From assembly GCA_963780165.1 (NCBI GenBank), contig CAWABB010000007.1, positions 35,173 through 99,172 on the forward strand: DNA of 64,000 bases, in the 5' to 3' direction. Positions within the stretch are counted from its first letter, which is position 1, and every line of letters begins with the position of its first letter. The stretch comes from an uncultured Ignavibacteria bacterium (GTDB lineage: Bacteria; Bacteroidota; Ignavibacteria; UBA10030; UBA6906). Position numbers and translations under genes: made by a program. The notes beneath the pieces are model-generated. The model saw only the letters and a program-made list of their open reading frames with translations, was not told the origin of the DNA and did not search any database. Below are positions 693 through 64,000 of this stretch, one piece after another.

Positions 693-1907
693 ATGCCGGT
701 GCATATCGCGCTAGTCAATCAATGGTACCCTCCCGAGGGTGGAGGGGGCGGGGTTGCCACGCACAACCATAACTTCGCCGTGGCGTGCGTCCGGCTTGGT
801 CACCGGGTGACGGTGATCTCGCAGCAGTTTCGGAACAATGTCGCTTCCCGTGATACCGCAGATGGCGTCAGCATCCTTCGCGTGCCGGCGCTCAACCTCT
901 ATGGTGGCCACCGATTGCCGGTTGTCGGGAGACAATACCGGTTCGCCCAGGCAATGGGGTACAGCAGGAAGGTGTGCAGTGTCCTCGAAGCGCTCCATCA
1001 GGAAACGCCGGTCGATATCGCTGAATTCGTGGAGGTCAACGCGGAAGGATTCTTCTGGCGACCCACCATGAGCAAACGCCTTGCCGTTCGATGCCAAACG
1101 CCCAACTGGGTGCTTCGACGCTACTATCTGAAGTCGGAGATGCCGTTTGACACAGGCCTGCTCGGGTGGGCCGAGCGACGCGTCATTCGGCGTGCTCATG
1201 TAGTAACGGCACCATCGCTCGATATGGCACACGTGATCGCGCATGACTGTGATGTGCCGATCGCATCAATTCATATGATTCCCAATGCCGTTGAGACTGG
1301 CCGACACCCCCTTGCCGTCCGGGGAGATCTGAACGATGATCTCAACGTGCTCTTTGTGGGTCGACTGGAGCGCGCAAAAGGGGTAGATACCCTTGTTGAT
1401 GCGATCACGAAGGTCGCGAGCACGGAGTCGAATGTGCGATTTGTCTTCGTCGGGAAACCCCGGAACAGACCCGGCGGTGGAACATACATCGACTTCATCA
1501 TGGACAGGCTTGGCGACCTGGTCCGACAAGGACGGGTCATCGTCAAAGGCTACCTCCCCGATGACGAGTTGGCGCAGGCCTATGCGCAGGCCGATATAGC
1601 CGTCGTTCCGTCGTTGCTGTATGAGAGTTTCTCATATACCTGTGCTGAAGCCATGGCGTTCGGAGTGCCAGTTGTCGGCAGCAGGATCGGGGGAATACCG
1701 GAGACGCTCGACCACGGCAGATGTGGAATCCTGGTTTCACCTGGTAGTGTCGAAGAGCTTGCTGACGGTATTCTTGCGTTAGTGCGCGACAAAGGGCTTC
1801 GTTCAACGATGGGGAATGCGGCTCGATCATTCGCGGTCGGTCGCTTTTCGTCTGAGAGGGTGGCGGGACAGATCCTCAACCTCTATGAGAGCATCGTCTC
1901 AGGATGA
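693..1907 (+). CDS. Glycosyltransferase family 4
   Basis: N-terminal WYPP..GGVAT; FVGRLERAKG; ESFSYTCAEAMAFGVPVVGS. Confidence 0.9.
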   Translation: MPVHIALVNQWYPPEGGGGGVATHNHNFAVACVRLGHRVTVISQQFRNNVASRDTADGVSILRVPALNLYGGHRLPVVGRQYRFAQAMGYSRKVCSVLEALHQETPVDIAEFVEVNAEGFFWRPTMSKRLAVRCQTPNWVLRRYYLKSEMPFDTGLLGWAERRVIRRAHVVTAPSLDMAHVIAHDCDVPIASIHMIPNAVETGRHPLAVRGDLNDDLNVLFVGRLERAKGVDTLVDAITKVASTESNVRFVFVGKPRNRPGGGTYIDFIMDRLGDLVRQGRVIVKGYLPDDELAQAYAQADIAVVPSLLYESFSYTCAEAMAFGVPVVGSRIGGIPETLDHGRCGILVSPGSVEELADGILALVRDKGLRSTMGNAARSFAVGRFSSERVAGQILNLYESIVSG

Positions 1908-1986
1908 ACTCCCCCTATCGCCATGTGGTGTTGTGCTCCAAGTGTCATATGCGACCTCGTAATGAATCCGCCCGGGAGAACGTCCT

Positions 1987-2982
1987 GTGTCTGTGAAGGA
2001 TGATTGCAGGATCTGTTGTACATCGACATCGGGCACCCGCTGGCAGGCGAGGGAGATGATGTTCGGCCTTCGAGACACATTTGAGTACTTTGAGTGTCAT
2101 CGATGTGGATGTGTTCAGATCTCGGAAATGCCAGCGACTCTCGAGAAGTACTATCCACCGGAGTACTACTCATTCTGGCGCCCCCGGGTAGAGAAGCCGA
2201 ATCCCATAAAGATGCTGGCGAAGATGTATCGCCTGCGTCACTTTCTGAATGACAGGAATCTTGTCGGTCTCGTGGCGACAAGACTCAAGGGTCCCGTCCC
2301 GCTCCCGGGCTGGCTCAAGAACGTCAATGTCACCCCGAAATCCCGAATTCTCGACGTCGGTTGCGGATATGGGAACCTGCTAAACAGGCTCCGTGCGGAG
2401 GGCTTCTCAAGCTTGCTGGGCATCGACCCGTATCTGCCCGGAGACGAAATCTACGACAATGGTGTAAGGGTTCTGAAAAGACGATTGGAAGAGATGAACG
2501 GGGAGTTCGATCTGATCATGCTTCATCATTCGTTCGAGCATATGCCGGATCCGCTTCATGCTCTCGTCACGTTGAGTGGCCTGCTTGCTCGTGACGGAGT
2601 GATGCTCATCAGAATTCCGGTCGCTTCTTCCTATGCATGGAGGAGGTACAGAACGAACTGGGTTCAGCTTGATGCCCCGCGTCATCTGTATCTCCATACT
2701 GTCGAAAGCATGAAGATCCTCGCCAACGCGGCTGGCCTCGAACCTGCGGGCATTGAATATGATTCGAACGCATTTCAATTCTGGGGAAGTGAACAGTATG
2801 AGAGGGACATACCACTGAATGATCCCCTGTCGCTGTCAAGCAACGCTCAATCGCCGATCTTCAGCCCGGAACGACTCGCTGAGTTCGCCCGGGGGGCCAC
2901 GGACCTGAACAGCAAAGGGGAAGGCGATCAAGCTTGTTTCTACATACGGAAGCAACTCCACTCCCGGCCCGCAGTACTGTGA
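1987..2982 (+). CDS. Class I SAM-dependent methyltransferase (glycan-cluster type)
   Basis: ILDVGCGYG SAM motif, FDLIMLHHSFEH, DAPRHL, two N-terminal CxxC pairs. Confidence 0.88.
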   Translation: MSVKDDCRICCTSTSGTRWQAREMMFGLRDTFEYFECHRCGCVQISEMPATLEKYYPPEYYSFWRPRVEKPNPIKMLAKMYRLRHFLNDRNLVGLVATRLKGPVPLPGWLKNVNVTPKSRILDVGCGYGNLLNRLRAEGFSSLLGIDPYLPGDEIYDNGVRVLKRRLEEMNGEFDLIMLHHSFEHMPDPLHALVTLSGLLARDGVMLIRIPVASSYAWRRYRTNWVQLDAPRHLYLHTVESMKILANAAGLEPAGIEYDSNAFQFWGSEQYERDIPLNDPLSLSSNAQSPIFSPERLAEFARGATDLNSKGEGDQACFYIRKQLHSRPAVL

Positions 2983-3000
2983 TCGAAAGGACGCATTGAG

Positions 3001-56547: not shown

Positions 56548-57090
56548 GTGAACCCTATGGCGGACACCCCTCCAACCCGGTCTGGAGTTAAGCCTTCTGA
56601 TCTCTGGATCGCAGCCTACAAACAGTACTTCGCGTTCTGGAAAAATCTCGCGAGGACTATTCATCTGTCGTCCGAAGAGGCTGAGGACGTCGTGCACACC
56701 GTGATCGCAGGATTGCTCACGGATGGGGCGCGCGACTTTGAGTCGCTCGAACACCTGAGGAACTACGTATCGCGAAGTGTTCTCAACAGGGCGATGCAAT
56801 ACAAGCAGCGGTCGAAGCGGTTCTCCGTCTGGGAGGAGGCCGTGGAGGTGAAGCTAGCGTGTGCCCCCGATCTGGCCCCGGGAGACGCCGAGCTTTTACA
56901 GGGCTCGTTCAGGCGCGGGTTGCTTCGACTGTCGGACAGTGATTTCCAGCTAATCAAGTTACGGTTCTTTACGGGACTGACGTTTGCCGAGTTGAGCACG
57001 CTCCTGGGCATGCCCATATCGACGCTCAAGAGTAGGGAAATCTCCGCGTTGCGCAAACTTCGCACCTGGATGCGCGACGACGGGTTCTAA
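56548..57090 (+). CDS. ECF-type RNA polymerase sigma factor
   Basis: Region 2 EEAEDVVHTV..YVSRSVLNR; region 4 LRFFTGLTFAELSTLLGMPISTLKSR. Confidence 0.8.
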   Translation: MNPMADTPPTRSGVKPSDLWIAAYKQYFAFWKNLARTIHLSSEEAEDVVHTVIAGLLTDGARDFESLEHLRNYVSRSVLNRAMQYKQRSKRFSVWEEAVEVKLACAPDLAPGDAELLQGSFRRGLLRLSDSDFQLIKLRFFTGLTFAELSTLLGMPISTLKSREISALRKLRTWMRDDGF

Positions 57091-57129: not shown

Positions 57130-57936
57130 ATGGCCCCGAAACTTAGTCCTTCCCAGCTTTCCGATTTTGTGCTCGGGAAACTCTCGCCTGAAGAATCCCT
57201 TCGCGTGCTCGACGAGCTCGAGCGTGACCCCGAAGCTTCGGAGACTGTAGACTACTATGCTTCCTTGCTTGCCTATGCTCGAGGCGAGGGGAGGTCGGTC
57301 TTTGAAGATCGGGTGAATGGGCGTCAAGGTGGCTCGTTCGCCGAGGTACGGCGTGCGGTCCGCCGTGTCTCCCACCGGCGGTGGGTCTTCGCTGCCGCTG
57401 CGATACTTGCTCTGAGCATCTTCGTGGGCCTGCTGATTCGCGGGAAGTCCATCCTCTGGGGTGACGATGCCAGGTACGCTGCGCTGTCGGAGGTGGAGTT
57501 CGGCGTTGGCATTCGGGCCGAGACTGATGACAATCTCCTGGTGGCGATGAATCTCTTCCATGAAGGTGAGTACGACAGGTCCATCCGGATTCTGGAGAGG
57601 TCGATAAAGAGGGAGCCTGCACATCCGCATTTGGACTTCGTGAACTACTCGCTTGGTTTGGTACATCTTGTCGCGGCCGAAGGAAGTGGGAGTGGTCCCA
57701 TCAGGGTTTTTGACCGGGAGCATGTTCGTCAGGGGCTCGAGGGTCTGAGGCGGGCAGCAATGTTGACCGCGAGTTCACGGTTGGCTGAAGAGTCCTACTG
57801 GCTGATGGCAAAGGGGCATCTGATGGTCGGGGAGACGGAGGAAGGGATACGATTTCTGCAGAAGGTAATCGAGTTGGGGGGACAGCGTGGGGGAGAAGCC
57901 ACGAGGTTGAAGGTCCTTATCGAGAGTGAGGAGTGA
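57130..57936 (+). CDS. Putative anti-sigma factor: short N-terminal domain, one TM helix, TPR-like C-terminus
   Basis: LSDFVLGKLSPEE, TM WVFAAAAILALSIFVGLLI, TPR-like YSLGLVHL and YWLMAKGHL; directly follows the sigma gene. Confidence 0.65.
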   Translation: MAPKLSPSQLSDFVLGKLSPEESLRVLDELERDPEASETVDYYASLLAYARGEGRSVFEDRVNGRQGGSFAEVRRAVRRVSHRRWVFAAAAILALSIFVGLLIRGKSILWGDDARYAALSEVEFGVGIRAETDDNLLVAMNLFHEGEYDRSIRILERSIKREPAHPHLDFVNYSLGLVHLVAAEGSGSGPIRVFDREHVRQGLEGLRRAAMLTASSRLAEESYWLMAKGHLMVGETEEGIRFLQKVIELGGQRGGEATRLKVLIESEE

Positions 57937-57943
57937 AGCTGCC

Positions 57944-60900
57944 GTGAGGTCGAAGATTCGTTTCCTGGCGGTATGTGCCATTGCGCTTGCGTCGGGGCAG
58001 GTGGCGATAGCAGGGACGTTCAGCAAGGAGTATCTGGACCTTCGTCGGATGGTCGGGAGGGCGGATTACGATGCCGCCTTAGAGCGTTGTGAAGCGATGA
58101 TCGTGCAGTATCCCAGGGAAGGTGTGTTGTACGAGGGATTGGCGGAGATCGCCCAATACGCTGGTCGGATTGATGATGCGATGTCGTTCCTTTGGGAGCG
58201 CGTGGAGGACGGGGCGGGTTTGTCGATGTGCTATTTTGCGTTGGGGAATCTGAGTTACCGTCGCGAGGACGATAGGAATGCGGTCATGTTCCTTGGCAAG
58301 GCCATCGAGCTCGGCGTGGAGGTGCCGGAGTGTTACTCTGCCTTCATATACTCCTATGAACGCTTGGAAGGAATTGATGCGACCTTGAGACTGATGACAT
58401 CGCTCTGCCATCGGCATCCCGCAAAGGCTGGCTACTGGTACGGACTTGCTTTGGCATATTGGGTCAATGGTGATTATTCACAAGTTCTGAGACATCTAGG
58501 GGAGGCATTAAGAATCAGGCCACTGGAGGATCGATATCAGCATGCAAGAATTACCGTCATGATGCTCAATGCCAAGGACACGGATGCGGGCGGATTCGTG
58601 TCCCAGATGATTGCAAATGCATTTGAGAAGAATGATTTCCACGGCCTGTTCCTGATGATGTCCGGGGTTGTCATCCGCAGACAGCAGCAAGGCCTCATTG
58701 ACTCTGCGATAGAAGAATGTAGGGCGTTGCTCAGAGTGTCAGAGAAATTCGGATATGTCAGGTGGACAGGCTGGGGGTACAAGCAACTTGCTGACATCTA
58801 TTCTGTGCTATCGCAATATGGTGGGTCGGTCGAGGCAGCAGAAAGGGCATATTTGAATGCGTGCGTCTCTGGGGACTTTCACCTGATGCAGTCCTCCCTG
58901 GCGAGGGCATTTGATTCGAATCTTGAACTCCTGAACCTGGGCGGGGCAATCCCGTGCCTTGCTCGACGAGTTGAAGCGTGCAAGACATCACAGTCTCGAA
59001 CATATCTGATCGGCATATTGCTGGACGCATCAAGGCTCTTTGTGTTCTTGGGACAGCCAGAGGTAGCACTTGAACTGGTAATCAGTGCTTTAAATTTGTC
59101 TGAACGCACTGCCCTCGACCGTCGACTCTACTGGGAGATACACTCTACCCTTGGTAACGTGTATGAGCAGTTGGGTGATTATCAATCGGCTCTCAGGCAT
59201 TACGAGATCACGCAATCCATTACTCCTGCCGAGCCCTTCTACTCTCGAGTTCAGGCAATCACTCAGGGCAACTTGGGGAGCGTCTATTTGCGAATGGGAT
59301 TTCCGCAGCGGGCGCGGGAGCGATTTTTGGCACAGGTGGCGTTTGCATTGGAAGCCAGATACGTGCGGGAGGCTGCATACGGGCACCTGAATCTAGGAAA
59401 GGCAAATCTTGAACTAGGGAAATGGAGGTCCGGTCATGAGGAATTGCTTCAGGCACTCGAGCTATCAGAAAAGGATTCCATCCGTCTTTGCCAGAAATTG
59501 GCACTGAAGGCCATTGCAGCTTCATATTTGGCTTGCGGTGATAGTACAAGAGCAGAGCAAGCGCTCCGCAGGCATGATTCACTTTCCGCCTGCAACAGAG
59601 TATCCAGTTCACTCTTGGTTAGCAGTAGGTTGCTGCGAGATCCGAATGACGACGAAGATAAACTTGCGCAGATTCTCTGTGCCCTCGGAAAGATGGAGCA
59701 AGGATTCTTGTCCGAAGAGACAATTCGCACAAGACATCAGCCCCTGTGGGCTGTGAATTGGGAGGGGATGAGAGATGACGAAGGCGGCAATGTGGCAATC
59801 TCGAACTTCGTGCAGACCTCGAAGAAGCTGAGAGCGGCTGTTGACAGTCTTTCTTCAAGGCCTGAGATGCAGGGCGGTCTTGTTGCTATGCCAGAGGATG
59901 CATTGTTCCTATTCGCAACCGCTGCTACACTCGATCTCCAGCGTCAGCAGGCACTTGCGGATCTGAAGGGAGATCCGCGGACGCAACGACTTGTCGCGAA
60001 GAGGGGAATGATTAAGGAGCTAGGGCAGATTCAATATCGACTTGGCAAGGAAGAGGCCGTTTTGTCATATATCCTTTCAAGCCAGGAATCCTTTGCCTGC
60101 GTCATTACTCGGGACGCAATCGCCTTCTGCAGCAATCTTCCTGGTCGGGATTCTATATCGTCACTGCTAAAGAGACTCAATCACATAACAGATCCATCTG
60201 AATCCCAGGCTCTCATACTGCCGCCGCTCCTAGATGACAGTGATTTGAAGTTGTGTGAAGAAGTGTACAGAGAGTTGATGGCTCCACTAGAAGCACTACT
60301 TTCCCGATCGTCGAGAGTCTTCATTATCCCTCCCACAGGGATACCGCCGATACCATTTGACCTGATGGTGTGCAAGTCTGCTGCGGCGTCAACGAGCAAC
60401 CTAAATGGAGGGATGTTCCTCATCGAGAGATTTGAGATCTGCTACATACCGGATTTGTCAAGTCTGCTGTCCAAGAGTAGCCAGGACTCTCAATCTGCGC
60501 ACAGGTGGATCGGGTTTGGAAACCCAGACTTGCCCTCGCGATCGAGGGGAAGCTTCGATCCAGACATGGAATTTCTCGGCAAGCACCTTGGGGTGAGTAC
60601 TCGCGTTGAGCTTGCGGCAGTACCAGAGGAGATCGATGGAATCAAGGAGAGATTTCAGAAATCGGGAGTGGCATTTCTGGGCGCGAATGCAACTCGGACC
60701 ACACTCCTATCTTTGGCCGGCACCGCTGATGTTGTGCACATTGCGGCCCATGGCTACCTTCATGATCGTATACCATGGGCGAGTGGGCTAGCATTATCAG
60801 GCACCAATCAGGCGGGGGTACCAACTGTTCTCACGGCCTTTGACATCTTCGAGTATCCTCTCGCGCGGAAGCTTCTCGTGCTTTCAGGTTGCATGTCTCT

Positions 60901-61282
60901 CAAGGCTGGGGGAATATGGACAAATGCCGGTGGGTTAAGACTCCCTTTTCACGGGGAAGTGCCGGTGATTGGATCCTGGTCATTCGTGGATGATCGTAGC
61001 ACGGCTGATCTCATGCTCAGGCTTTATGCGCATCTAGGCAGCGGCGTGTCGAGTTCCATGGCGCTAACTATGGCCAAGAGGGAGATTATTCGAGAGACAG
61101 GAGGTCGTTCACCCTATTGGGCAAACTTTTCTCACATCGGTTCACCAGTGGCTATATTCAGAAGCAAGAGTGAATCTCCCTCTGGAAAAGATGACTGGGC
61201 ATGGTTGCTGGTAGGTGGGGTTGCACTTCTGCTTGTCTCGGTTTGCGCGGTAGTTCTTGTGAGGAGGTACTCAAATTCATAA
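57944..61282 (+). CDS. TPR-CHAT caspase-like protease with a signal peptide and C-terminal membrane anchor
   Basis: Signal ending VAIA-G, many TPRs, IIPP..IPFDL, VVHIAAHG (His), LVLSGC (Cys), W.VDD, PYWANF, terminal TM followed by RR. Confidence 0.88.
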   Translation: MRSKIRFLAVCAIALASGQVAIAGTFSKEYLDLRRMVGRADYDAALERCEAMIVQYPREGVLYEGLAEIAQYAGRIDDAMSFLWERVEDGAGLSMCYFALGNLSYRREDDRNAVMFLGKAIELGVEVPECYSAFIYSYERLEGIDATLRLMTSLCHRHPAKAGYWYGLALAYWVNGDYSQVLRHLGEALRIRPLEDRYQHARITVMMLNAKDTDAGGFVSQMIANAFEKNDFHGLFLMMSGVVIRRQQQGLIDSAIEECRALLRVSEKFGYVRWTGWGYKQLADIYSVLSQYGGSVEAAERAYLNACVSGDFHLMQSSLARAFDSNLELLNLGGAIPCLARRVEACKTSQSRTYLIGILLDASRLFVFLGQPEVALELVISALNLSERTALDRRLYWEIHSTLGNVYEQLGDYQSALRHYEITQSITPAEPFYSRVQAITQGNLGSVYLRMGFPQRARERFLAQVAFALEARYVREAAYGHLNLGKANLELGKWRSGHEELLQALELSEKDSIRLCQKLALKAIAASYLACGDSTRAEQALRRHDSLSACNRVSSSLLVSSRLLRDPNDDEDKLAQILCALGKMEQGFLSEETIRTRHQPLWAVNWEGMRDDEGGNVAISNFVQTSKKLRAAVDSLSSRPEMQGGLVAMPEDALFLFATAATLDLQRQQALADLKGDPRTQRLVAKRGMIKELGQIQYRLGKEEAVLSYILSSQESFACVITRDAIAFCSNLPGRDSISSLLKRLNHITDPSESQALILPPLLDDSDLKLCEEVYRELMAPLEALLSRSSRVFIIPPTGIPPIPFDLMVCKSAAASTSNLNGGMFLIERFEICYIPDLSSLLSKSSQDSQSAHRWIGFGNPDLPSRSRGSFDPDMEFLGKHLGVSTRVELAAVPEEIDGIKERFQKSGVAFLGANATRTTLLSLAGTADVVHIAAHGYLHDRIPWASGLALSGTNQAGVPTVLTAFDIFEYPLARKLLVLSGCMSLKAGGIWTNAGGLRLPFHGEVPVIGSWSFVDDRSTADLMLRLYAHLGSGVSSSMALTMAKREIIRETGGRSPYWANFSHIGSPVAIFRSKSESPSGKDDWAWLLVGGVALLLVSVCAVVLVRRYSNS

Positions 61283-61320
61283 CTCGTTGGCCGTACTGAC
61301 TCGTGAACAGCAAGGCCGGT

Positions 61321-62268
61321 CTACAGGCTGAAGGGGACGGGGCTGAAGCTAAGGACGAAACAGCCTACGGAGAGAAAGAAGGCTGTTGATCTCGAAGCCG
61401 TCAGTGCCATGCCCTGCTCTGAGGGCCCGTGCTGGCGTCGACTCCCAAACCGCTCGAAAATGAAGAGAAGCAGAGCCCACATACCCCACCCGAGCCATCC
61501 TAGGTTTGTCGGTCCACCAAGTAGCTGGAGTAGGCCCAAAGCACCTAATAGGACGAGAATCACAAATGCTACTCGTCCAACATTGTGGGCAGCAACAGGA
61601 TATACAGCGGCAACAATGTGTCCGCCATCCAGCTGTCCGATTGGGATGAGGTTCAATGCTGTAACAAAGAGACCAAACCAGCCCACACAGAGAAGGGGGT
61701 AGTGGTAGATCTCGTTCATGGGGGGAACAAAGGCACCATCCTTGGTAAACAAGAACTTGATAGCTTCAAATGCTAGGTTCGAACCAAATGTCAAGCCTGT
61801 CGTGGGTATGGATTCCATCGCTCTGTATTCAGGATGCACACCATATAAGAAGTCAACCGGCGGGAGAGTAGCGAACCCGATAGCGAGGATGACAATACTA
61901 ACAAAGAATCCAGTGAGGGGTCCACTTACGCCTATGTCGAATAGAGCAGTGCGAGACGGGATCTCGCTCCTAATTCTAATTACAGCTCCAAGCGTTCCAA
62001 AAGGCACGAGACCATAGTATGGAGGGAATGGCAGGAAATACGGAAGGCTGGAGGAAACTCGGTTCAGTCTGGCGGCGAGAAAATGCCCCATTTCATGAGA
62101 TCCCAACATTAGAGTCAGTAGTAGCGCGTATGGTATCCCTTTCGACCAGTTGGTTAACTCGGTAGGATCGTTTCCTGACCACTGTACCCCAGCCAATGTC
62201 GTGGTTAGCACAGTTCCTAGCAGAAGCAATCCCGGAAGTAAGAGACTCCTCGCTGTGATCTTCTCCAT
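61321..62268 (-). CDS. Site-2 protease (M50) without PDZ or CBS domains
   Basis: HEMGH, GTLGAVI, SGPLTG, NLIPIGQLDGGH. Confidence 0.92.
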   Translation of the reverse strand: MEKITARSLLLPGLLLLGTVLTTTLAGVQWSGNDPTELTNWSKGIPYALLLTLMLGSHEMGHFLAARLNRVSSSLPYFLPFPPYYGLVPFGTLGAVIRIRSEIPSRTALFDIGVSGPLTGFFVSIVILAIGFATLPPVDFLYGVHPEYRAMESIPTTGLTFGSNLAFEAIKFLFTKDGAFVPPMNEIYHYPLLCVGWFGLFVTALNLIPIGQLDGGHIVAAVYPVAAHNVGRVAFVILVLLGALGLLQLLGGPTNLGWLGWGMWALLLFIFERFGSRRQHGPSEQGMALTASRSTAFFLSVGCFVLSFSPVPFSL

Positions 62269-62335
62269 TTGGATTAGAGAGTTAATGGGTCAATGATTGG
62301 GACGATGATTACATTACAAATCACTACATGTAACA

Positions 62336-62370
62336 ATAAAAAGAAAGGCCGGCTCATTTACGAGCCGGCC
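62336..62370 (-). terminator. Rho-independent terminator after the repeat-peptide gene
   Basis: ggccggctc-gtaaat-gagccggcc followed by tttcttttt on the minus strand. Confidence 0.8.
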
Positions 62371-62417
62371 AGCGGGATATCAAGCAACTACACTAAAGCT
62401 GGGCGTCAGCCCAGGAT

Positions 62418-62663
62418 CTACGGCCGAGGAGATTCTGGAAGATGCGGAACGCCGCTACGAGTGGGGCGCGGCGATTCGGGCAGGTGAGGGACGCCGCTCT
62501 TCGCTGCCTCTTGGCCCAGTTCCACCGATGAAACTGAAGCCCTCGTAGGTCTCGGAGATTCAGGAAGATGTGGGACCCCGCTCGCGAGTGAGATTGCGTA
62601 ATTTGAGATGGCAACAACTGCCAAGACAAATGCCAACGAACGCACACGTTTCATTGTTTGCAT
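62418..62663 (-). CDS. Small secreted precursor with three SGVPHLPESPRP cores (81 aa)
   Basis: GGAGG SD, Sec-type signal, three identical 12-aa repeats that differ only at synonymous sites, own promoter and terminator. Confidence 0.85.
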   Translation of the reverse strand: MQTMKRVRSLAFVLAVVAISNYAISLASGVPHLPESPRPTRASVSSVELGQEAAKSGVPHLPESPRPTRSGVPHLPESPRP

Positions 62664-62841
62664 TGCGTTCACCTCCAGAAGTGAGTCAAGGGTAATTCTG
62701 TCAGACGTTTAGTTTCTTCGTTCAAAGCGGTGTTGGTCATCTCTAGCAATCGCAATTAGTCGGCGCTGACCAAACTTCGTGATGAATAGTGGCGAACTAT
62801 CGCACGGAAGGGGTGGCTAAACTCTCAACCAACTGTGTGCA

Positions 62842-62870
62842 AATATATGCAGCCCCAAAACATTTGTCAA
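62842..62870 (-). promoter_or_regulatory. Sigma70-type promoter of the peptide gene
   Basis: TTGACA-N17-TATATT on the minus strand. Confidence 0.65.
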
Positions 62871-63017
62871 GGAATTACTGAAATTCCGCAAAATTTTTTG
62901 TATGGCGTCGTTGGTTGGCTCCGGGCATACAGGTTGCTGCTGCCAGATGCCCTTGGGGCCAAAATGTGATAAGTGACACAAAAACCGCGTTTTCGAGTAG
63001 ATTTCTGCGTCTTGCAC

Positions 63018-63046
63018 TTGACTCCCAAATATGGGGTGGATATATT
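63018..63046 (+). promoter_or_regulatory. Divergent sigma70-type promoter
   Basis: TTGACT-N17-TATATT, ending 11 bp before ATG 63058. Confidence 0.65.
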
Positions 63047-63057
63047 GGACGCAGACA

Positions 63058-64000
63058 ATGACACTGCCGGGGAGACATAGCAGCACGTTGGGCAGGGCAT
63101 ACCTGATGGCAGGGGGGGTCATCGGGTTCTATGGTATCACCCTGTTGCTGCTCCCTCACTATCCTGTGGACCTTGCCGCATTTCTTACCTACTCGGTCCA
63201 GACACTTCTGCTGTTTATCTGCCTTGCGGTGTTCAGGCACGAGCCGACCCGTAATCGCCGGTTCGTTTTCCTCAACTTTGCGATAATGCTTTTCGATCGC
63301 CCCCGTAGCCCACCTCTACAACTTCGTGGGTACAGTCATCCCGGCAGAGTGGTTCTACTCCGACACCCGATTCTCCAGGTTCCTGATCAATCAGTATGTC
63401 TTCCGCGGCGCGTATTTCCTTTTCCTCGCTGTGGCGCTCGGCTACCTTGCGATCGATCTCGTCCTTCGTGAGCAACGGGTCATGATGAAATACATCGTCA
63501 CGATAGGTATCGTCGCGATGTTCTTCGGCGTGTACTACTACCCGTTCATTCGTGATCCGCTCTATCTCCACAAGACCGCCGACGTCCAGGAATGGAAAGT
63601 CCTCGACCAGGCGTTCGCAAGCGTCAAGCAAAGGACCGGAGCAGACCCGACGGCTGAACAGCTCGCAGCCTTGCCGTCGGTCCGGGCGGCGTTCGATGCG
63701 ATGGAGGTCACCAACGAGCCGGCACGCGTCACGGAACTCTATCCGTACCTCTTCGCGGATAACTGGAAGATTCTTGTGTTCAAACCGCTCCACCTGAACC
63801 AGGTCTATATGTCAATTCTGGCGATCGGGTTCGTGATCCTCTTCTTCGGCTATCAGTTCCTGAAGGATCCGCCACAGGGGGCGTACATCGAGAAAGTCAT
63901 GTTCCTCTTCCTCGCGTTCTGCACGCTGGAAGCGTTCCATGCCTATATGGCGACGTCTATCATCGAGTGGCAGGCACTCAAGCACTTTACTATCCTCGGG
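63058..64000 (+). CDS. Multi-pass membrane protein of unknown function (frameshift near 63290, runs off the window)
   Basis: Hydrophobic helices in the first frame; second frame open to the window end (YFLFLAVALGYL, YYYPF, FFGYQFLKDPPQGAYIEK). Confidence 0.7.

Follow-up and report, generated by a model that had tools for sequence, protein, structure and literature searches.

A family of predicted exported multi-copy propeptides in Ignavibacteria whose repeated peptides are kept by purifying selection

The ORF 62418-62663(-) in the window, by which we mean the whole 64,000-nucleotide stretch of Ignavibacteria DNA that was analyzed, is a real small gene, and each copy of the peptide that it encodes in triplicate is kept by purifying selection on the peptide. 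As judged from sequence, it is one member of a large undescribed family, Ignavibacteria-wide in distribution, of exported multi-copy propeptides. Export, cleavage, and signaling are sequence-based predictions, and the reading that we favor, with confidence evenly balanced, is that the propeptide is cut into species-specific 12–13-mers that act as a signal, probably sensed via the divergently encoded pair c1/c2. The features of the locus are collected in Table 1.

Table 1. Features of the precursor locus and its surroundings, in positions of the window.
Feature	Position	Strand	Basis or remarks
Precursor gene	62418..62663	(-)	246 nt, 81 aa, ATG start, TAG stop
Leader, residues 1-27	62583..62663	(-)	Basic n-region, 11-12 uncharged residues, N-x-A-I-S c-region
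Unit 1, SGVPHLPESPRP	62547..62582	(-)	Translation
Spacer, TR and 14 non-repeat residues, the last being K	62499..62546	(-)	Translation
Unit 2, peptide same as unit 1	62463..62498	(-)	Translation
Spacer TR between units 2 and 3	62457..62462	(-)	Translation
Unit 3, peptide same as unit 1, stop codon directly after	62421..62456	(-)	Translation
Sigma-70-type promoter TTGACA-17-TATATT	62842..62870	(-)	11/12 matches
5' leader, ~170 nt	62664..62836	(-)	Promoter-to-ATG distance
Shine-Dalgarno GGAGG, 8 nt before ATG	62672..62676	(-)	Sequence
Intrinsic-terminator-like hairpin and T-run, between precursor and M50 genes	62337..62370	(-)	10-bp stem, 8 GC pairs
M50-family intramembrane metalloprotease, 315 aa	61321..62268	(-)	PF02163, 7.7e-20
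TPR and CHAT protein, leader and C-terminal membrane helix	57926..61282	(+)	Convergent with M50 gene
Anti-sigma-like	57130-57936		Operon whose last gene is CHAT
ECF sigma	56548-57090		Operon whose last gene is CHAT
Segment without detectable DNA similarity to congeneric genome G001	58474..62544		Flanks 89-95.5% identical
c1, orphan multi-helix membrane protein, divergent from precursor gene	63103..64000	(+)	Runs off window
c2, sigma-54 activator after c1	Just outside window		Sigma54_activat 1.8e-33, HTH_8

The original prediction of three identical 12-residue cores was confirmed in its coordinates, its reading frame and translation, and the synonymous nature of all differences between the copies. 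Pairwise, the unit DNAs differ at 9, 8, and 9 of 36 nt, none of which alters the peptide; one difference is a first-position AGA/CGN change in an arginine codon, and all others are third-position changes, with 10 of the 12 third positions variable. Across the three units 11 sites vary, and the substitution events number at least 15, none of them non-synonymous. Because 27–29% of random single-base changes in the units are expected to be synonymous, the probability that all of the changes would be synonymous is ~5e-9, which bears out the purifying selection on the peptide that had been proposed, and the pattern holds family-wide: exact repeats of 8–16 aa are kept in 30 of 32 genome-derived family genes, in which the repeat copies differ at a median of 0.72 of synonymous sites. 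The flanks of the units were also as predicted, with unit 1 preceded by ...AISLA at the presumed signal cleavage site, unit 2 by K, and unit 3 by R, and with TR after units 1 and 2 and the stop codon after unit 3. The unit contains one acidic, one basic, and one His residue, giving a net charge of ~0. The gene is single-copy in a search of its genome; a second match in the same genome (E 0.003) was rejected as spurious, as it lies out of frame within a 739-aa ORF.

Homologous precursors were matched at E<=1e-3 in 20 of 61 related genomes, and 18 true matches were found in 301 genomes of the class, where a further match in family f11 (G188) proved spurious. A metagenome search returned 124 clusters at E<=1e-3 among 1.84 billion representatives; 113 of these are no longer than 170 aa, and among the 113 the leader motif is present in 104 and exact repeats in 94. 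The family genes contain 2–6 tandem units of ~12–13 residues (the commonest period is 13 aa, 80/174 intervals), which are identical within a gene and different between species, and between congeners all unit copies have changed at once. Such species-specific units fit a specificity-bearing peptide. The unit always ends in P-[R/K]-P, usually with the stop codon right after the last unit: these are the last residues of 76 of the 113 small representatives, and 18 more end at most 6 residues away. There is no match for the family in Pfam, NCBIfam, Rfam, or PDB, a profile search of PDB sequences with the peptide gave chance matches only, and no description of the family was found in a literature search whose scope excluded supplementary files.

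The N-terminal leader shows three traits of Sec/signal-peptidase-I substrates, namely a basic n-region, an h-region of appropriate length, and small residues at -3 and -1, and these are present both in the window protein, for which a secretion leader had been claimed, and across the family. The net charge of the leader is +2 to +6 with a median of +4 in 104 family sequences, the basic residues in the window protein being K5, R6, and R8. Ahead of the conserved Asn stand 12 uncharged residues in 78/104 sequences and 14 in 26/104, and the N-x-A-I-S c-region has A at -3 in 99/104 and S at -1 in 94/104. A second S-x-A site often follows the N-x-A-I-S, with no lipobox Cys. The precursor would be of the kind exported by Sec, and signal peptidase I would take off the leader. 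Cuts between the units, mostly beside K/R, would then be made by proteases of the periplasm or the cell surface, and trimming of the cut ends would stop at P-[R/K]-P. Each precursor would in this way yield the same short, proline-rich, roughly neutral peptide several times over, for use as a species-specific signal.

Cleavage after basic residues, as put forward originally, agrees with part of the family. Of 174 internal P-[R/K]-P ends, 116 (67%) have K or R as the next residue, and in 51 of 82 genes this is true of every internal unit end; other residues follow the remaining 58 of 174 ends (33%), and the remaining genes have D, H, T, V, G, or longer spacers after the unit ends, with D throughout in some lineages. 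Because the spacers are not uniformly basic, one simple K/R-specific protease cannot explain all members.

The gene has signals of its own on either side. The promoter, the leader of ~170 nt, the Shine-Dalgarno sequence, and the terminator that had been claimed were each located in the sequence. In most related loci a TTGACA-like -35 and a TAnAnT-like -10 element were recognized by eye ~170–300 nt upstream of the ATG, an AGGAG/GGAGG-like site lies 5–9 nt before the equivalent ATG in all 18 relatives with an intact family-type ORF, and a simple scan found a similar hairpin and T-run within 20–90 nt of the stop in 14 of 25 related loci. Rfam gave no family at E<=1 for 62250-63100 except a chance snoRNA match, and the 5' leader folds no better than its shuffles (z = +0.96). 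RNA-library contigs from three metatranscriptome runs of three studies, which may contain DNA and come from runs found by searching with this stretch, cover 62427-62687 with 88–97% identity; the same contigs leave the M50 gene uncovered and cover c1 over 35 nt in one run only. The gene is probably highly transcribed. A lack of expression or homologs had been named as grounds for abandoning the prediction; homologues were found, and the RNA-library contigs cover the gene.

The M50 gene directly downstream and the divergent c1/c2 pair were overlooked in the original prediction. The c1 protein has 8 helices, a periplasmic insert of ~70 residues, and a conserved cytoplasmic tail, and c2 is a sigma-54 enhancer-binding protein without a sensor domain of its own. 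The pair is the only neighbor whose distribution tracks the precursor gene: all 18 precursor genomes fall among the 28 of 301 genomes with c1, c1 adjoins the precursor gene in 25 of 26 assessable loci, and in genomes that lack the precursor the corresponding slot of the backbone lacks c1 and c2 as well. In two genomes with c1 that the peptide model had not flagged, a family-type or single-unit small gene lies beside c1. Gene order is conserved clade-wide, so that the adjacency is partly inheritance. Within genus g20, c1 is the fastest-diverging neighbor, with identities of 52–59% compared with 90% for c2 and 66–84% for M50, which is the pattern expected of a specificity-matched receptor.

No recognizable fold or family was found for c1 in family, structure, and profile searches. 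The AF2 model of an intact c1 homologue, in which the periplasmic insert is placed at residues ~155–229, has a pLDDT of 84.6; Foldseek of this model against PDB gave no match at E<=0.001, the best being GPCR bundles with TM<=0.39, an ESM Atlas search gave nothing above 0.75, and a profile search of PDB sequences gave 0 matches. Prediction of a complex between c1 and the mature part of the precursor gave a score of 0.23 (mark 0.32), and was counted on neither side of the question of binding. The c1 gene of this genome breaks into two frames near 63291, and other indels are seen in the congener; the proposed receiver may not be functional here, or the assemblies may contain errors. A scan of 30 loci from -1.5 to +2.5 kb around the gene (at least 10/12 matches, GG and GC required, precursor gene located in 26 of the 30) gave no positionally conserved canonical sigma-54 site, and weaker GGCAC-like elements seen by eye are for this reason not claimed. 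A literature search on the c1/c2 pairing found nothing. On the favored reading, c1/c2 would be the most likely receiver of the peptide: c1 would sense the peptide and act with c2, both being divergently encoded and traveling with the precursor gene. A further extension, which we hold less likely than not, is a hitherto unknown form of peptide cell-cell signaling in Ignavibacteria, which are diderm relatives of Bacteroidota: a prohormone-like precursor would supply one species-specific proline-rich peptide of 12–13 residues, ending in PRP, in several copies, c1 would be a new kind of 8-helix membrane receptor for it, and the conserved cytoplasmic tail of c1 would pass control to the sensor-less activator c2. 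The unit peptide is 1.2 kDa and an intercellular signal would have to cross the outer membrane, for which no exporter was identified.

In 29 of the 30 loci that could be assessed, the M50 gene follows the precursor gene on its downstream side; the related loci were gathered with an M50 alignment. Its HExxH and NxxPxxxLDG-type motifs are intact, with H58, E59, H62, and D214 invariant. The same M50 orthologue, with the same downstream genes, occurs in many genomes without the precursor, and the M50 gene thus appears from its distribution to belong to an older gene backbone. It was considered as a specifically co-evolving partner, since the M50 proteins of G000 and G001 are 55% identical within flanks of 95–98% identity, but this was rejected because other congeneric pairs are 70–92% identical. 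The dissimilar segment in Table 1 spans CHAT from about residue 183, the M50 gene, and units 2–3 of the precursor with the spacers, and on the extended signaling reading the specificity region in this genus appears to be exchangeable as a block, like pherotype cassettes. The CHAT protein, which had been proposed as the processing protease, adjoins the precursor locus in only 8 of 29 loci and was discarded in that general role. The M50 protease may clear or process the leader, and CHAT may contribute where present; neither is required by the evidence.

The strongest competing explanation is that the protein is exported and stays uncut, as an intact, proline-rich, multivalent periplasmic or membrane-associated polypeptide, for example a P-x-P-[R/K]-P ligand or spacer for c1, for the TPR domains of CHAT and the anti-sigma protein, or for envelope components. 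Extended proline-rich repeats often serve as spacers in the periplasm or as ligands for TPR-like domains, the spacers between the units are short and not always basic, and TPR proteins are encoded next door in this genome. However, a structural repeat does not need copies that are identical to the letter while their DNA is near synonymous saturation, nor a stop codon exactly at the end of a unit, which most small representatives nonetheless have. The copy number of 2–6 and the possible single-unit form argue against a fixed length or valency, and the TPR/CHAT neighbors are absent from most loci. We therefore regard an intact polypeptide as unlikely, although it deserves serious consideration.

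A multi-core antimicrobial or bioactive precursor directed against competitors, whether bacteriocin-like, similar to proline-rich antimicrobial peptides, or a RiPP with remote tailoring enzymes, is a distinctly unlikely source of the pattern. RiPPs and bacteriocins typically have multi-core precursors and hypervariable cores, and several cores behind one conserved leader are indeed present here. The units contain PRP triplets, a signature of the insect proline-rich antimicrobial peptides, some of which derive from multi-copy precursors. Nevertheless, the units are about neutral, lacking the strong positive charge of such peptides, and nothing points to antibacterial action. Cys occurs after the leader in only 4 of 104 family members, and the leader is of Sec type rather than a RiPP recognition leader. 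The conserved module contains no immunity gene and no dedicated exporter, and Pfam and NCBIfam scans found no tailoring enzyme among the neighbors in the window and one related locus, in line with what was first noted for this stretch. A glycosyltransferase (c3) is a constant neighbor two genes away, but it belongs to the backbone, which genomes without the precursor have as well.

Lastly, the main role of the small protein could lie in regulated intramembrane proteolysis, as a substrate or as a regulator; the adjacent M50 site-2 protease would cut the N-terminal helix of the small protein, and where CHAT and the ECF sigma/anti-sigma pair are present the system would form an envelope-stress-like cascade. 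The M50 gene is immediately downstream in nearly all assessable loci, the leader is unusually conserved with its Asn invariant, RseP/Eep-type M50 proteases process signal peptides and peptide-pheromone precursors, and a single block replacement in this genus has taken in the units, the M50 gene, and most of CHAT. This is improbable, because the M50 orthologue is kept where there is no precursor and is not unusually divergent in other congeneric pairs, a strong terminator separates the two genes in 14/25 loci, the uncharged stretch of 12–14 residues has the length of a signal peptide and not of an anchor, the cytoplasmic part would comprise only ~9 residues, and CHAT/ECF are adjacent in few loci. 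A chance ORF or non-coding repeat, for which only the small size and the lack of database families speak, has practically no likelihood given that all copy differences are synonymous, more than 100 homologous clusters exist, the Shine-Dalgarno sites are conserved, and RNA-library contigs cover the gene.

Returning to the favored reading of a cleaved signal propeptide, linear peptide pheromones from Sec-exported propeptides are textbook knowledge for Bacillota, and to our knowledge they are almost unheard of in diderm bacteria. Eukaryotic hormones, fungal repeat proteins, and insect immune peptides are the main known cases of precursors that contain many identical copies, and the present family looks like a bacterial counterpart of hormone and pheromone precursors. 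A bacterial class carries such a gene, with over 100 clusters, selection on the peptide, and tight linkage to the orphan membrane protein c1 and a sigma-54 activator. Provided that the peptides are set free and sensed, they would form a new bacterial signal family with a built-in catalogue of natural ligand variants, c1 would be a candidate for a new receptor type, and a sensor-less sigma-54 activator would gain a function; if the c1/c2 reading is true, the signaling architecture would have no described counterpart. Even without signaling, the family provides a clean natural case of repeated coding units held identical in protein while their DNA diverges.

Among known systems, the Rap-Phr systems of Bacillus and its phages include Phr-type propeptides with tandemly duplicated pheromones (PMC11343458). 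These resemble the present family in being small Sec-exported propeptides, as is predicted here, with more than one copy of a short unmodified peptide; in having peptides that differ between related systems, as the units do here; and in releasing the copies by extracellular proteolysis, again a prediction in our case. They differ in belonging to monoderm Bacillota and usually having 2 copies of 5–6 residues, compared with 2–6 copies of 12–13 residues in a diderm Ignavibacterium. The Phr peptide is taken back into the cell, where it binds to a cytoplasmic TPR receptor encoded next to it. The small Sec-type propeptide with short mature peptides that is characteristic of RRNPPA systems has its match here in the predicted precursor, and no adjacent RRNPPA-type receptor was found, the neighbors being a membrane protein, a sigma-54 activator, and M50; the TPR proteins nearby have leaders or membrane segments and occur in only 8 of 29 loci.

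The pheromones of Enterococcus and Streptococcus are matured by Eep/RseP-type M50 proteases. They share with the present family a small precursor, an N-terminal hydrophobic segment, and an M50 gene in the genome, which here is even adjacent. They are, however, single hydrophobic peptides from the signal sequence or the C terminus, whereas here the repeats are hydrophilic and proline-rich, and genomes lacking the precursor have the M50 gene too. Cyanobactins and graspetides are made from multi-core RiPP precursors, in which several hypervariable cores likewise stand beside a conserved leader; these have cytoplasmic recognition leaders and adjacent tailoring enzymes, in contrast to the Sec-type leader here with no such enzymes nearby. 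Apidaecin, an insect proline-rich antimicrobial peptide from a multipeptide precursor, is similar in that short linear PRP-containing peptides follow one signal peptide in many tandem copies, but peptides of this type are strongly cationic and 16–20 residues long.

Yeast alpha-factor is a eukaryotic multi-copy pheromone precursor. Fungal Kex2-processed repeat proteins (PMC7329392) are further multi-copy precursors of eukaryotes. The resemblance of alpha-factor and the Kex2 repeat proteins to the present family lies in a signal peptide, tandem identical peptides, short spacers with basic residues, a last copy at or near the C terminus, and a copy number that varies between species. In these eukaryotic precursors kexin cleaves at dibasic KR sites within the secretory pathway, whereas here the sites are mostly single K/R, dibasic (KR/RR) sites between repeats are not a property of the family, and there is no kexin pathway because the host is a bacterium. 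The resemblance of these bacterial propeptides to eukaryotic multi-copy precursors is convergence, not homology.

Translation of the precursor ORF and pairwise comparison of its units establish the gene structure given in the table below, and the original prediction of three identical units separated by purely synonymous DNA differences was borne out in every detail. The unit pairs differ at 9, 8, and 9 of 36 bases, synonymous throughout, with 11 variable sites across the three units, at least 15 substitution events, and variation at 10 of 12 third positions. Only 27–29% of random single-base changes in the unit codons would be silent, and the probability that every unit substitution is silent is ~5e-9. 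A GGAGG Shine-Dalgarno site lies 8 nt 5' of the ATG. The gene is present as one copy in its own genome, the runner-up match being out of frame within a large gene. By eye only, a conserved GTG-N8/9-CAC-like palindrome was seen at ~62950–62975, upstream of the precursor promoter and within the intergenic stretch between the divergent genes, and likewise at the equivalent place in four related loci (L028, L029, L030, and L037); it could be a candidate regulator site.

Features of the precursor gene and the adjoining protease gene
Feature	Position	Strand	Description
Precursor ORF	62418-62663	-	246 nt, 81 residues; translation as originally predicted
Unit 1	62547-62582	-	encodes SGVPHLPESPRP
Unit 2	62463-62498	-	encodes SGVPHLPESPRP
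Unit 3	62421-62456	-	encodes SGVPHLPESPRP
Promoter match TTGACA-17-TATATT	62870-62842	-	upstream of precursor
10-bp GC-rich hairpin and T-run	62370-62347	-	3' of precursor
M50 metalloprotease gene	61321-62268		downstream of precursor; HExxH and Asp ligand intact

Sequencing runs were sought with 62250–63050 as the query, and three metatranscriptomes from three studies and one raw-read run were aligned to 61000–63600. The RNA-library contigs (112–254 nt, 88–97% identity to the window) span 62427–62687, corresponding to the precursor and the first leader bases, and nearly all of their differences from the window fall at three-base spacing. Within the aligned region, no contig from the three metatranscriptome runs covers the M50 gene, and c1, the orphan membrane protein gene divergent from the precursor, is covered over 35 nt only, in one run; two reads came from the raw-read run, and they lie upstream of the precursor. 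The contigs are consistent with an abundant short precursor transcript in close relatives, with the caveats that RNA libraries may contain DNA and that the runs were chosen with the precursor stretch itself. In 14 of 25 related loci the precursor stop is followed by a terminator-like hairpin, in agreement with a mostly monocistronic unit.

The precursor protein has no match in Pfam or NCBIfam. Homology searches nevertheless recovered a family in related genomes, a class-wide sample, and metagenome clusters. Of 61 related genomes, 20 contain matches at E ≤ 1e-3; a profile of 20 members matched 19 of 301 genomes sampled class-wide, one match being spurious; and a search of 1.84 billion representative proteins yielded 124 clusters at E ≤ 1e-3. 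Loci retrieved via the neighboring M50 protease put the clade within Ignavibacteria and relatives. Five metagenome homologues are 65–98% identical to the precursor. The family architecture is constant, as counted in 113 representatives of ≤170 aa, excluding ten longer proteins that match the proline-rich half of the profile only. The leader has a net charge of +3 to +5 and carries the motif N-x-A-I-S in 104 of the 113, with an uncharged stretch of exactly 12 (78/104) or 14 (26/104) residues, Ala at −3 in 99/104, and Ser at −1 in 94/104. It is followed by two to six tandem units, every one ending P-[R/K]-P, with a commonest period of 13 residues (80 of 174 intervals); exact repeats occur in 94/113. 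The stop directly follows the last P-[R/K]-P in 76/113 and lies ≤6 residues beyond it in 18 more. An AGGAG/GGAGG-like site precedes the equivalent ATG in all 18 intact family-type ORFs among the 20 loci returned. Two loci, L019 (G030) and L020 (G004), retain the leader and half a unit, after which the reading frame continues into unrelated non-repeat sequence; they may be frameshifted family members. In the congener G001 (L007), the third of five units is degenerate at its end (…SRDP versus …SPRP) and is followed by a longer spacer; it looks like a decaying copy. One member (L031, G016:C64) lies in a wholly different neighborhood, with M50, c1, and c2 absent within 9 kb, and the same genome has another, incomplete copy where a contig ends.

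Selection on the units, established for the precursor, is general across the family. Exact peptide repeats of 8–16 residues occur in 30 of 32 genome-derived family genes, and the median fraction of synonymous sites that differ between the DNA copies is 0.72 (range 0.04–1.11). The compared stretches were picked as exact repeats, so the absence of amino-acid change is built in; what is informative is the survival of exact repeats despite such high synonymous divergence. Near-identical DNA copies were found in one gene only (L154). Congeneric species differ in their units, with all copies changing together, and copies in one gene resemble each other only a little more closely than they do those of a congener, which suggests turnover followed by purifying selection rather than ongoing homogenization. 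Identity within genes, fast change between species, and a fixed P-[R/K]-P end together form the pattern that would be expected of excised, specificity-bearing peptides and not of a structural repeat. An uncut multivalent proline-rich polypeptide is an unlikely reading.

The gene c2, just beyond the window edge, encodes a sigma-54 enhancer-binding protein with AAA+ and HTH_8 domains and without an N-terminal sensor domain. Linkage of the precursor to c1/c2 is firm: c1 adjoins the precursor in 25 of 26 assessable loci, and every one of the 18 genomes in which the precursor match is genuine falls among the 28 of 301 that are c1-positive. By its distribution c1 tracks the precursor, in contrast to M50. 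Six c1-positive, profile-negative genomes were inspected; one held a five-unit precursor missed by the profile, one a single-unit look-alike in the precursor position, two ended at contig edges, and two were diverged paralogous or unresolved contexts. In L157 (2592–2825, minus strand) and L047 (652–894, plus strand), a 77–80-aa ORF between M50 and c1 has a leader, one unit-like stretch, and a charged tail, and may represent one-copy relatives in another family-level clade. At L158 (6213–6491, plus strand), a divergent 92-aa ORF that begins with a leader and has a proline run at its C terminus lies beside a diverged c1/c2 paralogue pair (~30% identity); small proline-rich partners may accompany the sensor-activator pair more widely.

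An AlphaFold2 model of an intact c1 homologue (mean pLDDT 84.6, pTM 0.81) shows ~8 membrane helices, with a ~70-residue insert bearing a small hairpin between helices 5 and 6; the C-terminal tail is of low confidence, yet is the most conserved sequence of the protein. c1 matched no family, fold, or structure atlas. In pairs within the genus g20, c1 is 52–59% identical compared with 90–91% for c2 and 66–84% for M50. Some sensor-less activators are controlled in trans, and by analogy we infer that c1 may be a membrane sensor holding or releasing c2 via its C-terminal tail. No canonical sigma-54 promoter conserved across loci was found near the precursor locus. In the window, c1 is split over two frames near 63291 (63103–63471 and 63284–64000), and G001 has two other single-base indels nearby; the cause is either faulty assembly or, in this genus, decay of the putative sensor. 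The 97% protein identity of c1 argues for continued constraint. An antimicrobial or modified peptide is somewhat less likely still than an uncut polypeptide.

M50 adjoins the precursor in 29 of 30 assessable loci. Downstream of it lie genes for an unknown 300-aa protein, a 515-aa protein with a FlgD_ig-like end, and PorV-like barrels, and M50 together with these genes is an older backbone. Without the precursor, the same backbone is present in Ignavibacteria and extends to genomes labelled Rhodothermales. In these precursor-free genomes, radical-SAM-like and outer-membrane-like genes fill the slot of c2-c1-precursor. At eight such loci from Ignavibacteria (L042, L045, L048, L050, L051, L055, L056, and L112; positions 1000–3000), this slot lies between a glycosyltransferase and M50, the radical-SAM-like gene has CxxxCxxC near its N terminus, and a leader-bearing 275-aa protein is encoded. 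Convergent with M50 is an operon of an ECF sigma factor, an anti-sigma-like TPR protein, and a TPR-CHAT protein of 1118 aa that carries a leader and, at its C terminus, a membrane helix, and whose gene start overlaps the anti-sigma-like gene end by 11 nt (57926–57936), suggesting translational coupling. The CHAT protease, originally named as the candidate for processing, adjoins the precursor locus in only 8 of 29 loci and is not a conserved partner. That the precursor is a substrate or regulator of M50/ECF proteolysis is improbable.

Flanking DNA of the window and G001 (L027) is 89–95.5% identical on both sides of a 4.1-kb block, 58474–62544, that has no detectable DNA similarity to this congener. 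Units 2–3, M50, and the greater part of the CHAT gene lie within the block, and its right-hand break falls within unit 1, at the sole residue differing between the species (His versus Val). The M50 proteins of the pair are 55% identical compared with 95–98% for c1, c2, and the glycosyltransferase. This looks like block replacement, as in pherotype cassettes; the pattern is not generalized, because M50 is not unusually divergent in other congeneric pairs.

Our preferred reading, to which we give about even credence, is that a multi-copy propeptide would be exported via Sec and cleaved into identical short, species-specific signal peptides, whose ends would be trimmed and which would be sensed, probably via c1/c2. 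The prohormone analogy holds for the architecture, a leader with tandem identical units; the cleavage after basic residues that came with it suits two thirds of the unit ends.

Our literature search found no description of the precursor family or of the c1/c2 pairing, although mentions that are not indexed could be present in supplementary files. Among bacteria, the closest published parallel is that of Phr propeptides whose pheromones are duplicated in tandem (PMC11343458). The two differ in host envelope, unit length, and unit number, and the precursor family differs further in its invariant P-[R/K]-P end and type of partner gene. Multi-copy secreted propeptides are themselves a known type; what is new here is the phylum and the partners.
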